A stretch of DNA of 64,000 bases from an uncultured Gemmatimonadales bacterium (GTDB lineage Bacteria > Gemmatimonadota > Gemmatimonadetes > Gemmatimonadales > Gemmatimonadaceae): positions 2,496,001 through 2,560,000 of the forward strand of contig OY969695.1 in NCBI GenBank assembly GCA_963701965.1, read 5' to 3'. The position numbers were made by a program, and so were the translations under genes. Positions within the stretch are counted from its first letter, which is position 1, and each line of letters begins with the position of its first letter. Shown here piece by piece: positions 58,904 through 64,000 of this stretch. The notes beneath the pieces were generated by a model that had not been told where the DNA came from, ran no database searches, and saw only the letters and a program-made list of their open reading frames with translations.

Positions 58904-60134
58904 ATGCCTCTCGCCAGCCGCCGTCAGACGGTAACCGCCTCCGTGGGCGGTGTCGCGATCGGATCCGCGCACCCGATCGTCGTGCAATCCATGACCAACA
59001 CCGATACTGCCAATGCCGCCGCCACCGCGGAACAGGTGGTCGCGCTCGCCCGGGCGGGCTCGCAGCTGGTGCGGATTACGGTCAACAACGAGGAGGCCGC
59101 GGCAGCGGTTTCCGGGATCGCCGAACGGGTCGCCGACCTCGGGGTCACCGTCCCGCTCGTCGGCGACTTCCACTACAACGGCCACCTGCTGCTCGCCAAA
59201 TACCCGGCCTGCGCCCGCGCGCTGGCCAAGTACCGCATCAACCCGGGCAACGTCGGCGGCAAACGCCGCGACGAGCACTTCCGGCAAATCGTCGAGATCG
59301 CGCTCGACAACGACAAACCGGTCCGGATCGGCGTGAACTGGGGATCCCTCGACCAGGATCTCCTCACCACCATGATGGATGAGAACGCCGGGCGCAGCGA
59401 GCCGCTCGAATGCGCGCGACGTCATGATCGAGGCCATGATCGAAAGCGGCCTCCGCTCGGCCACCCTCGCCGAATCCGTGGGCCTTGGCCACGACCGCAT
59501 CCTCATCTCGGCCAAGGTGAGCCTGGTGCCGGACCTGGTCGACGTCTACCGCCGTCTGGCGCCCCGCTGCGACTATCCGCTCCACTTGGGACTCACCGAG
59601 GCGGGACTGGGCACCAAAGGGGTGGTCGGATCCAGCGCGGCGCTCGCGATCCTGCTCGGCGAAGGCATCGGCGACACGATCCGGGTCTCCCTCACCCCGC
59701 GCCCGAACGGGGATCGCACCGAAGAGGTCATTGTCGCCCAACAGATCCTGCAGTCGCTCGGTCTCCGCAACTTCACGCCGCAAGTCACGGCGTGTCCGGG
59801 CTGCGGGCGCACGACATCGACCTTCTTTCAGCACATGGCCGAGGACATCCAAACCTATCTGCGCGAGCAAATGCCGGTGTGGCGGGAACAACATCCCGGG
59901 GTCGAGACCATGCGGGTCGCGGTCATGGGATGCGTGGTCAATGGCCCGGGCGAATCCAAGCATGCCAACATCGGCATCTCGCTCCCCGGCACGTTCGAGG
60001 AGCCGAAAGCCCCGGTCTACGTCGACGGCAAACTGGTCGTGACGCTGCGCGGCGAAGGCATCGTGCCGGAGTTTCTGGCCATTCTCGAGGACTACGTCGC
60101 CCGGACGTACCCTGCCGCGATGCCGGTCGCGTGA
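58904..60134 (+). CDS. ispG: HMBPP synthase (MEP pathway); probable 1-nt insertion near 59409
   Basis: [27 protein letters not shown] in one frame. [27 protein letters not shown] and [10 protein letters not shown] in the next. Confidence 0.95.
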
Positions 60135-61974: not shown

Positions 61975-62997
61975 ATGCGCGACCGCGTAATGCGCGCGAT
62001 GCTGCTGGAGGCGCCGCGCCAGCCGCTCCACATGGTCGAGTGGGCGGAGCCGACGCCCCTCGATGGGCAGATCCTGATCCACGTGCGGGCGTGCGGCGTC
62101 TGCCGGACGGATGTGCACATCGTCGACGGCGAGCTGCCGAACCCGGCGGTGCCTTTGATCATCGGCCACCAGATCGTAGGAACAGTCGCGGCCCGTGGCC
62201 CGGGCGCCGAGCGGTTCGAGATCGGGGCGCGGGTGGGCGTGCCGTGGCTGGGGTGGACGGACGAGACGTGCCGCTACTGCCGGAGCGGCCGCGAGAACCT
62301 GTGCCCGAATGCCCGCTTCACGGGCTACACGATCAATGGGGGCTACGCGGACGCGGTCACCGCCGATGAGCGCTATGCGGTCGCGATTCCCGACGACTTC
62401 ACGGACACGCAGGCGGCGCCGTTGCTGTGCGCGGGACTGATCGGATACCGCGCCTTGATGGCGGCGGGCGACGCGCGGCGGGTGGGCTTCTACGGGTTCG
62501 GGGCCTCGGCGCACCTCATCGCCCAGGTGGCGCGCTACCAGGGCCGCGAGGTGTACGCATTCACGCGCCCGGGCGATACGACGACGCAAGCGTTCGCCAA
62601 GAGTCTGGGCGCCGCGTGGGCGGGGGACTCGGACACGATGCCGCCTGAGCGGCTGGATGCGGCGATTCTGTTCGCGCCCGTGGGCGCGCTGGTGCCGACG
62701 GCGCTGCGCGCCGTGGACCGGGGCGGGGTGGTGGTGAGCGCGGGCATCCACATGTCGGCCATCCCGTCGTTTCCGTACGCGTTGCTGTGGGAGGAACGGT
62801 CGATCCGGTCGATCGCGAATCTCACGCGACGGGACGCCGAGGAATTCATGGCGCTGGCGCCGCGCGTGCCGGTGCGGCCAACGGTGACGTCGTACCCGCT
62901 GGCCCACGCCAACCGCGCGCTCGCCGATCTGCGCGCGGGCCGCGTGCGTGGTGCCGCGGTGCTCGTCATGTCCGGCACGCCGCGCTTGACACGGTGA
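61975..62997 (+). CDS. Zinc-dependent alcohol dehydrogenase
   Basis: CGVCRTD, GHQIVG, C..C...ENLC, APLLCAGLIGY, GFGAS. Confidence 0.93.
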   Translation: MRDRVMRAMLLEAPRQPLHMVEWAEPTPLDGQILIHVRACGVCRTDVHIVDGELPNPAVPLIIGHQIVGTVAARGPGAERFEIGARVGVPWLGWTDETCRYCRSGRENLCPNARFTGYTINGGYADAVTADERYAVAIPDDFTDTQAAPLLCAGLIGYRALMAAGDARRVGFYGFGASAHLIAQVARYQGREVYAFTRPGDTTTQAFAKSLGAAWAGDSDTMPPERLDAAILFAPVGALVPTALRAVDRGGVVVSAGIHMSAIPSFPYALLWEERSIRSIANLTRRDAEEFMALAPRVPVRPTVTSYPLAHANRALADLRAGRVRGAAVLVMSGTPRLTR

Positions 62998-63002
62998 GCG
63001 AC

Positions 63003-63167
63003 CGTACCTACCGGCAGCGCACCGGCATCCCCGCGTCCCTCGTGGTGGTGGGCTTGGCCGCGAACGATTTCACGATCGCGGATGCGGACGATCCCGCGAT
63101 GCTCGACGTCGTGGGTCTCGATACCACCACGCCGCAGATGATCGCGTCGTTCATGACCGACGGCTGA
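63003..63167 (+). pseudogene. C-terminal remnant of a Ro60/TROVE (Rsr-like) protein
   Basis: RTYRQRTGIPASLVVVGLAANDFTIADADDPAMLDVVGLDTTTPQMIASF resembles the Ro60 vWA C-terminus. No start codon or N-terminal part. Confidence 0.75.
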
Positions 63168-63250
63168 CAACGAAAGAGCCCCGGGAGAAATTCCCCGGGG
63201 CTCTTGTCGTTCGTATGGCGGTGGAACCGCCACGGCCGTCTCGCAAGCAC
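63168..63250 (-). ncRNA. Putative sRNA B, antisense to the neighbouring tRNA
   Basis: TTGACG-N16-TAAAAT promoter (63283-63256). 5' end is 17/18 complementary to the tRNA anticodon arm. Terminator at 63174-63205. Confidence 0.6.
63174..63205. terminator. Bidirectional terminator hairpin
   Basis: AAGAGCCCCGGG/CCCGGGGCTCTT stem. Confidence 0.8.
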
Positions 63251-63321
63251 TTTCAATTTTATATGATTCCACGCCAGCGTCAACGCTGCGGATTACCGAA
63301 TTCTACGATTGCCAACTAGCG

Positions 63322-63405
63322 TACCCGGGACGGGATTCGAACCCGCACGCCCTTGCGGGCAGCCGCTTGCGAGACGGCTGTGTCTACCAGTTCCACCACC
63401 CGGGC
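63322..63405 (-). tRNA. tRNA with tRNA-Leu body and CGC (Ala) anticodon; CCA not encoded
   Basis: Full cloverleaf: GCCCGGG/CCCGGGT+A73, D arm GTGGAACTGGTAGACAC, GCCGT-CTCGCAA-GCGGC, variable arm GCCC-GCAA-GGGC, GCGGG-TTCGAAT-CCCGT. Confidence 0.9.
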
Positions 63406-63481
63406 ACCGTTCACGCTCGGCGAAAACTGGATGGTGCGACACAGATTCATCGCAAGTGCTGCGCGACTAGCTGGCGGCGAA

Positions 63482-63631
63482 CAATGTATCGACCCGATGC
63501 GATTCGCGCATCGTTGTATTTCGCACATCATCATGACCAACAACGAAAGAGCCCCGAGGGACATCCCCCGGGGCTCCACAGCAGTCTCGCACGCACCCGC
63601 AATGTATCGGCACGATGCGATTCGCGCATCG
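63482..63631 (-). promoter_or_regulatory. Duplicated 32-bp promoter/operator (63482-63513 and 63600-63631)
   Basis: 30/32 identical. Each contains the palindrome CGATGCG-N5-CGCATCG and a TACATT -10-like box on the minus strand. Confidence 0.7.
63541..63596 (-). ncRNA. Putative sRNA A, antisense to the tRNA anticodon arm
   Basis: Begins just after TACATT. GCGTGCGAGACTGCTGTG is 16/18 complementary to the tRNA. Terminator GAGCCCCG..CGGGGCTC-TTTCGTTG is homologous to that of sRNA B. Confidence 0.55.
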
Positions 63632-63645
63632 GTGAATGTCACACG

Positions 63646-64000
63646 TCAGCGCGCGGCGACCTCGGCCCCGCGGCGTTCGACATCGTCCGTGGCGAGGCGC
63701 AGCTCGGCGAGGATCGGTGCGGTGAATCCGACCTCGGCGAGGCGATCGCTGAGCTCCCGGTAGTAGCGAATCGTGCCTTCGCGCCCGCGCAACGTCCGCG
63801 TCCAGATGGTCTCGGGATAGTCGGTGCGCCGGAGATCGGCGAGGATGGTGCCGATGCTGTGCAGCGCGTCGGCCGCGCCGACCCAGCGCGAGGCGTCAGT
63901 CGCGATGGCCAGTCGCGTGACGACATCGCGCTTGCGCTCATCGGGCGAGAGCTCGACACCGTTGTCATCCGTCCGCCGCTCCGTCACGGCCAGCGCGATC
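63646..64000 (-). CDS. HD-domain protein, small alarmone hydrolase/Mesh1-like (5' end outside window)
   Basis: VTE...ERK...AADALHS..IL.D....W.R...GREGTIRYY pattern. Confidence 0.65.
   Translation of the reverse strand, partial: IALAVTERRTDDNGVELSPDERKRDVVTRLAIATDASRWVGAADALHSIGTILADLRRTDYPETIWTRTLRGREGTIRYYRELSDRLAEVGFTAPILAELRLATDDVERRGAEVAAR

Follow-up and report, generated by a model that had tools for sequence, protein, structure and literature searches.

A leucine-body tRNA with an alanine anticodon and its matched antisense RNA gene: a candidate all-RNA toxin–antitoxin module in Gemmatimonadota

Introduction

The genome of an uncultured Gemmatimonadales bacterium (G000; a single contig of 5.1 Mb, 95% complete) carries a tRNA gene that has the body of a tRNA-Leu and the anticodon of a tRNA-Ala. 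Why should a gene that seems harmful be retained? The gene lies in a stretch of 64,000 nucleotides (the window, by which we mean the whole stretch that was analysed), and its retention would be explained if the tRNA is silenced by a dedicated RNA encoded beside it. That the tRNA gene and an antisense gene form a real unit is, in our view, nearly certain. The best reading of this unit is that of an all-RNA toxin–antitoxin module, composed of a mistranslating tRNA as toxin and an anti-tRNA antisense RNA as antitoxin; judged from sequence features, we favour this reading with some reserve and rank it ahead of regulated mistranslation, followed by a non-translational RNA pair.

A leucine tRNA body with an alanine anticodon

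The predicted toxin gene occupies positions 63322–63405 on the minus strand (tRNA nucleotides 1–73), with the anticodon CGC at 63369–63371, and is called by ARAGORN (tRNA-Ala(cgc), 63321–63405, minus) as well as by Rfam (RF00005, 50.7 bits, E 6e-8 over 63322–63405). The first-pass annotation had described a leucine body with intact stems and an alanine anticodon, and this description holds: the anticodon loop reads CU-CGC-AA, and the acceptor stem (GCCCGGG/CCCGGGU, 7/5 branch) is paired at 7/7 positions and has, as had been stated, C3:G70 in place of G3:U70. A73, A15:U48, a Leu-type D-loop (AACUGGUAGA, which 12 of the 23 true tRNA-Leu controls share) and a long variable arm, all of which had been listed as leucine features, are each present, together with the T-loop UUCGAAU, G18G19, A20a, G18:U55, G19-C56 and U54:A58. 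CCA is absent from the gene, as it is from the 23 controls, and position 35 is G35, not the A35 of leucine anticodons. Among the 64 antisense-positive family members described below, A73 is found in all 64 and A15:U48 in 63, and the alanine determinant G3:U70 occurs, among the matches listed, in 0 of the 149 tRNAs of the first set and 0 of the 86 of the held-out set. According to the part of PMC9976931 drawn on here, the E. coli leucine identity set consists of A73, A15-U48, G18G19 and A20a, and the anticodon is not read; a leucine body with intact stems and an alanine anticodon appears to fit this set. Charging with leucine, along with misreading of GCG, is predicted and fairly likely.

The CGC Leu-body tRNA is an extra gene beside a full set of leucine and alanine tRNAs. 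The normal tRNA-Leu genes of G000 have the anticodons CAA (two), GAG, TAG, CAG and TAA, and the genome encodes a normal tRNA-Ala(CGC) and one LeuRS. It also has two further Leu-body genes (anticodons GAC and CGC), and a search with a profile made from 53 relatives recovers three full units plus one extra antisense copy, the latter in the window. A genetic code change, in which GCG would have been reassigned to leucine in the source organism, is hardly conceivable. What speaks for it is the tRNA at 63322–63405 itself; against it stand the normal tRNA-Ala(CGC), the presence of all five leucine anticodons, and 226 aligned GCG positions (19 HSPs, 87 queries), at which Ala was found 93 times and Leu four times, with CTG as a control giving Leu at 100 of 145 aligned positions. 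Recoding of GCG to leucine was rejected on the tRNA set and the GCG alignments. Other tRNA genes seen in G000 include an extra tRNA-Ser(TGA), duplicates of the genes for Lys, Thr and Leu(CAA), tRNA-Sec and tRNA clusters (C1:851105-851192, 346014-346345 and 1215473-1216165).

The antisense RNA gene and surrounding parts

Three stretches flanking the tRNA match its anticodon region (63231–63248, 17/18; 63577–63594, 16/18; 63438–63456, 14/19). The first-pass annotation had taken them for copies that argue against a miscalled anticodon; the matches exist, but all three are inverted relative to the tRNA and are therefore antisense to it rather than copies of it. A miscall is still very unlikely, because the antisense holds the exact complement of the anticodon, a second CGC Leu-body gene is present in G000 and CGC members are found elsewhere in the genus.

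The first of these matches belongs to a predicted antisense small RNA (the putative antitoxin; 63166–63249, minus strand), with inferred ends. Compared with the sigma-70 consensus, its promoter is of the sigma-70 type (63256–63283, minus; −35 TTGACG at 63278–63283, a 16-nt spacer, −10 TAAAAT at 63256–63261), and the promoter scan found one promoter at this gene versus a mean of 0.2 in shuffled sequences; the place of this promoter is conserved in 64 of 64 antisense-positive loci. The 5′ segment of the RNA (63231–63248) is predicted to be single-stranded, is complementary to tRNA nucleotides ~23–40, and is followed by a hairpin (63217–63231) and an intrinsic terminator-like hairpin (63169–63205, minus). 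The latter is apparently bidirectional, as it also lies 3′ of a Ro60 remnant on the plus strand, and is not among the calls of a strict scan. Folded alone, the 84-nt RNA leaves its anti-anticodon end largely unpaired (centroid; z −5.3); co-folded with the tRNA, it opens the anticodon arm in the computed structure.

The tRNA precursor is predicted to start from a weaker promoter, read from sequence (63483–63511, minus; −35 ATGCGC at 63506–63511, 17 nt, −10 TACATT at 63483–63488), which is overlapped by a palindrome and lies under the scan threshold. The precursor has a 5′ leader (63406–63476, minus), in which 63438–63456 and 63425–63430 are pairable with the anticodon and D arms, and a 3′ trailer (63311–63321, minus), which by folding can lengthen the acceptor stem; leader positions 63466–63475 can pair with trailer positions 63311–63320. 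The leader-paired fold lies only 3.0 kcal/mol below the cloverleaf at the window tRNA, and 10.7 and 11.4 kcal/mol below it in the paralogues. Tests of leader sequestration across the family gave p 0.001 for nucleotides 14–38, 0.09 for the anticodon-specific nucleotides 27–38 and 0.087 for the cloverleaf cost, and general leader sequestration, weak across the family on the latter two tests, was rejected.

Upstream of the tRNA lies a second antisense-RNA-like gene (63540–63629, minus), identified by profile search (nhmmer E 0.0036; G000 was left out of the profile) and by duplex energy (−29.6 kcal/mol with the tRNA at 63322–63405). It comprises a leader promoter copy (−35 at 63624–63629, −10 at 63601–63606), the core 63577–63594 and a terminator (63542–63577). 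On either side of these parts lie a C-terminal remnant of Ro60/Rsr (62994–63167, plus) and the 3′ part of an HD-domain gene (63646–64000, minus); neither a TROVE domain nor RtcB was found in the 95%-complete genome. Elsewhere in the window, a gene at 58904–60134, which we take to be ispG-like, is split over two frames, likely by an assembly indel.

A family of tRNA–antisense pairs

Pattern and similarity searches yielded at least 153 distinct Leu-body tRNAs; four were dropped, and the 149 with a downstream flank of 100 nt were kept. For each of these, tRNA nucleotides 22–38 were tested for duplex formation with the tRNA's own downstream flank, ranked against the other 148 flanks, and a rank in the top three was counted as positive. 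Among the matches listed, a cognate antisense lies downstream of 56 of 71 Gemmatimonadota non-Leu elements, compared with 0 of 23 true tRNA-Leu, and of 6 of 15 elements from Planctomycetota and 2 of 40 from other taxa; the search patterns behind these counts imposed U33, D- and T-loop letters and most anticodon classes and missed two C33 members, related genomes are not independent, and an unpublished control genome (G012) contributes one of the 23 control tRNAs as well as rows in the genome and pattern tallies. The family is larger than the matches listed. A held-out set of at least 120 metagenome loci was chosen on the tRNA and TTGAC only, with the antisense disregarded; 120 loci gave 86 that were distinct and new (21 were duplicates, 7 already seen, 3 short and the rest not parsed), and a cognate antisense was found in 71 of the 86, with five of the remaining 15 rescued when the whole tRNA was used as target.

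At nucleotides 26–38 of the 64 positives, the 832 oppositions comprise 776 Watson–Crick (WC), 32 GU, 13 AC and 11 other; the anticodon is fully WC-paired with the antisense in 63 of 64, and all four pair types are seen at stem positions. GU oppositions outnumber AC (p 0.007), which indicates RNA pairing on the strand of the antisense gene. The antisense is preceded by a promoter scoring at least 11.5 in 64/64 positives versus 3/23 controls and 22% of shuffles, the −10 box ending 5–10 nt ahead of it in 63/64, and is followed by a terminator in 60/64 versus 1/23 controls; the upstream (tRNA) promoter scores 10.5 versus 14.0 for that of the antisense. On the tRNA side, the 7-bp acceptor stem and the leucine identity elements are kept in 69/71 Gemmatimonadota elements and 81/86 held-out loci. 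In 42/64 positives versus 1/23 controls, pairs can form at −1:73 as well as at −2:74, a feature that may slow tRNA processing. Both the tRNA and the antisense RNA are non-coding by sequence; an ORF of 15–60 amino acids led by a Shine–Dalgarno (SD) sequence is present in 17/64 units and a membrane-like stretch in 0/64, and a hidden peptide toxin was rejected on the latter count.

With the whole tRNA as target, seven Gemmatimonadota and six Planctomycetota elements are added (control 1/23), several of them through the variable-arm loop, and in some members (L048, L051, Planctomycetota) this loop is paired instead. In a subgroup with GTG or GCG anticodons (L234, L248, L268, L296, L324, L064 and L287), the loop of the variable arm is the first to be paired by the small RNA and the anticodon loop the second. 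After the whole-tRNA and gene-order additions, 65 of the 71 Gemmatimonadota elements have a partner. Among the other six, four have weaker pairing, L057 has none detectable, and L162, an intact GCC tRNA, has a non-cognate antisense that fits another anticodon.

Gene orders, specificity and evolution

At least three arrangements of the unit are found across Gemmatimonadota, Planctomycetota and Saccharibacteria. In addition to the downstream order, L107 holds two units in which the antisense gene lies upstream and has a promoter and a terminator of its own, and in the Saccharibacteria loci L095 and L098 the antisense gene is convergent on the opposite strand, with a terminator common to both genes; by eye, L072 also has the convergent order, with the variable arm as target. 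The upstream and convergent orders exclude fold-back within one transcript as the explanation and call for a trans-acting RNA. Since the antisense changes with the anticodon and occurs in three gene orders, it likely acts in trans, as far as sequence can tell.

The pairs are also specific. The three pairs of G000 discriminate mutually (cognate duplexes −35.3, −30.8 and −31.7 kcal/mol; crossed −9.1 to −23.5 kcal/mol), and the mean duplex energy in 20 CGC units is −37.0 kcal/mol for cognate versus −21.6 kcal/mol for crossed combinations. The leading anticodons, CGC, GTC, GCC, GGC and GCG, read the codons ranked 1, 7, 3, 2 and 4 in G000, GCG being the commonest, and anticodon counts correlate with G000 codon use (rho 0.53, p 0.0008, 36 pattern-allowed anticodons), where the ranks are those of G000, may differ from those of the contigs' own hosts, and come with kin that are not independent. 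Ile/Met-type (NAT) anticodons are absent from 151 family genomes, the only two hits both being Val.

The window site corresponds to the rsr–rtcB gap of the genus, at which orthologous units carry the anticodons CGC (G000), GGC (G004 and G001, with C33 beside it) and GGA (G005). In G003, tRNA and antisense are absent from this gap together, and in G000 the unit was kept while rtcB and most of rsr were lost. Units occur in five of six genomes of the genus and, with one strict pattern, in 11 of 401 of the phylum, and their neighbours are mixed housekeeping genes. DNA-repair genes (MutS, UvrA, RuvB, SSB, TopIB, WYL and a repair radical SAM) were noted in the flanks of L012, L014, L137, L151, L061, L071 and L002. 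L141 (a Gemmatimonadales bin) and L144 (a Propionibacteriaceae bin) hold near-identical units beside the same VanZ neighbour, a sign of misbinning or transfer.

No integrase or transposase was found among 91 flanking ORFs (26 without a Pfam hit), and plasmid and phage collections gave matches to the tRNA part only, none spanning the unit. A downstream antisense is present at 0 of 25 viral loci with mismatched or other long-arm tRNAs, and NAY anticodons gave no viral match; phage or plasmid carriage was rejected on these grounds. A candidate SOS box (TTCG-N7-TTCG) is found in 0/56 leaders and is not enriched genome-wide in G000, and SOS control was rejected; by eye, this direct repeat is seen upstream of lexA (C1:4877022), recA (C1:4599000) and a radical-SAM gene (C1:2804790).

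Mismatched Leu-body tRNAs of other taxa have a nearby antisense in 2/40 cases by the downstream test, to which the gene-order test adds the two from Saccharibacteria, so that such tRNAs can exist without an antidote. Intact or near-intact Leu-body tRNAs with a non-Leu anticodon and no antisense found near by (L073, L118, L165, L092, L130, L150, L089, L126, L173, L182, L190, L203, L208 and L209) come from Solirubrobacterales, Acidobacteriota and others, and from viral contigs. A separate group of Leu-like tRNAs has broken acceptor stems and no antisense; it consists of L079, L081, L083, L094, L096, L123, L139, L193, L198, L207 and L210, which have GCC, ACC, TGC or GTC loops and come from Bacteroidota, Bacillota and viral contigs.

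Proposed mechanism and alternative explanations

The matched tRNA–antisense pair recurs in more than 100 bacterial sequences, which makes it likely that the tRNA is a toxin checked by an RNA antidote. In the proposed model, a weak promoter would yield a tRNA precursor, the maturation of which would be slowed by leader and trailer. Once mature, the tRNA would receive leucine from the ordinary LeuRS, an enzyme that ignores the anticodon, and would insert it at GCG codons. The small RNA, made from a strong promoter, has a free 5′ end with which it would grip the anticodon loop; it would open up the stem of the anticodon arm and block decoding, and the resulting duplex would probably be targeted for decay. 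If the locus were lost or its transcription stopped, the short-lived antisense would be gone first, leaving the stable tRNA behind, and the cell would be arrested by Ala-to-Leu errors throughout its proteome, with addiction, dormancy or abortive infection as possible outcomes. In the parts of the papers drawn on here, missense allo-tRNAs (PMC5389517) and tRNA-ProX (PMC10404621) arrest the growth of E. coli, and Ala-to-Pro mistranslation is mild in that host (PMC10404621); by the latter, Ala-to-Leu errors may be tolerated, which counts against a toxin. It also counts against a toxin that neither mobility genes nor a plasmid- or phage-borne unit were found among the flanking ORFs and in the collections searched, which leaves the module without a mobile element to stabilise and without a known route of spread. 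On balance, we lean slightly towards the wider view that such units are widespread selfish addiction modules, made of RNA throughout, that direct a missense tRNA at the commonest codons of their hosts and hold it with an anti-tRNA small RNA, and that would otherwise work as described; new specificities would arise by coupled change of the anticodon arm and the antisense.

Regulated, useful mistranslation would predict an identical anatomy. Here, the tRNA would put leucine at codons for Ala, Val, Asp or Gly, and the antisense would be an off-switch rather than an antitoxin, lifted under stress so that the proteome becomes more diverse or stress responses are primed. The chromosomal sites, which lie amid housekeeping genes and stay in place from species to species within the genus, suit this explanation, as does the finding that E. 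coli can become more tolerant of antibiotics with tRNA-ProX (PMC10404621, in the part drawn on). We nonetheless consider it unlikely: the anticodon varies freely at one orthologous site, which would not be permitted under a tuned recoding, the distribution is patchy (the 11/401 genomes above, for one pattern), and no regulator site is shared, the candidate SOS box being absent from all leaders.

Less likely again is a non-translational RNA pair, in which the tRNA would be a scaffold, sponge or decoy, its counterpart being the antisense small RNA, an anticodon nuclease or a synthetase, and in which the 'anticodon' would be a pairing loop only. Pairing through the variable-arm loop in some members (L048 and L051, Planctomycetota), C33 in two members of the genus and the report that several irregular tRNAs are charged yet unused in translation (PMC5389517, in part) would fit such a pair, but the retained leucine identity and 7-bp acceptor, the loop triplets that follow codon frequency and a small RNA with little besides antisense and terminator speak for a tRNA that acts in translation. 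The locus could in principle also be a relic at the DNA level, that is, inverted partial duplications of a decaying tRNA-Leu, as an integration scar, an inversion switch or an assembly artefact, with no RNA function. The region is repeat-rich and the assembly has frameshifts (the split ispG-like gene), but fixed promoter spacing, terminators, the excess of GU over AC, the three gene orders and the fact that many independent assemblies have such units make this very improbable; an inversion switch was rejected, since the antisense holds the same anticodon and inversion would leave it unchanged.

If the addiction-module reading is true, the unit would, within the literature searched, be the first case of a tRNA under natural antisense control, and would make codon ambiguity switchable, from which a change of the genetic code could start; if the tRNA is a toxin, it would represent a new toxin class (a tRNA) along with a new regulator class (an anti-anticodon small RNA). 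The cassette, at ~350 bases, makes the purpose of natural mistranslating tRNAs testable and would provide a compact means of turning sense-codon recoding on and off. For annotation, a warning follows: tools assign such genes to the normal tRNAs for Ala, Val, Asp or Gly.

Comparison with known systems

No description of a tRNA with a matched antisense gene was found in the full-text literature searched, which covers few subscription journals and excludes supplements; such a pair of genes is without earlier description there even if the tRNA is non-toxic. The comparisons below follow the parts of the cited papers drawn on here. The first-pass annotation had named allo-tRNAs and a tRNA-Pro-type miscoding tRNA as precedents, and neither fits. 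Allo-tRNAs are likewise mismatched, with diverse anticodons, their missense forms are lethal in E. coli, and they often lie near protein toxin–antitoxin genes (PMC5389517); however, they have an 8/4 or 9/3 branch and Ser or Ala identity (PMC5389517; review PMC7609411), whereas the tRNAs described here have a 7/5 branch, Leu identity and a leucine D arm in place of the tRNA-Sec-like D arm. The word 'antisense' has 0 occurrences in the main text of PMC5389517, the supplementary irregular-tRNA lists of which could include members of the tRNA–antisense family. tRNA-ProX with ProRSx is a natural bacterial tRNA of dual identity that mistranslates and is toxic in E. coli, but has a Pro body, A34 and an adjoining dedicated synthetase (PMC10404621, PMC11415595); here, the body is that of Leu, the partner is an antisense RNA, no dedicated synthetase was found and the genome has one LeuRS.

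Bacterial Y RNAs (Rfam YrlA) are tRNA-like RNAs encoded beside Ro60/Rsr, and the window unit likewise is a tRNA-like RNA adjoining rsr. Nevertheless, the window has no Rfam match to YrlA (RF02553), just one of many unit sites adjoins rsr, and relatives with an intact rsr have a separate tRNA-like RNA upstream of it; Y RNA identity was rejected on the lack of an Rfam match, and Ro60/RtcB as functional partner because this site is one among many. The separate RNA (L217:108-232, L216:3344-3467 and L218:104-229), which has a 60-nt insert replacing the anticodon loop and in L218 gives a weak YrlA match (26.6 bits), is probably a Y RNA variant of the genus.

Among toxin–antitoxin systems, the type VIII module CreTA has two RNA parts and a toxin that acts on translation, features that the present unit would share if its tRNA is toxic, but its CreT mini-ORF sequesters a rare tRNA and CreA represses transcription via CRISPR-Cas (PMC8501985); no cas families were found among the 91 nearest ORFs flanking units, and in our proposal the toxin is the tRNA itself and is neutralised by direct pairing. 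Type I loci such as hok/Sok and tisB/IstR-1 have an antisense small RNA with its own promoter and ~17–21 nt of complementarity, a toxin transcript that is long, structured and dependent on processing, several paralogues in a genome, each specific, and tandem or convergent gene orders (PMC4147584), all of which have counterparts in the unit as predicted here. They differ in that their target is an mRNA and not a tRNA anticodon arm, and in the small hydrophobic protein, which is encoded in 0/64 of the present units. At the sequence level, the unit nevertheless has what characterises type I, a separately promoted small RNA that is antisense to the putative toxin RNA.
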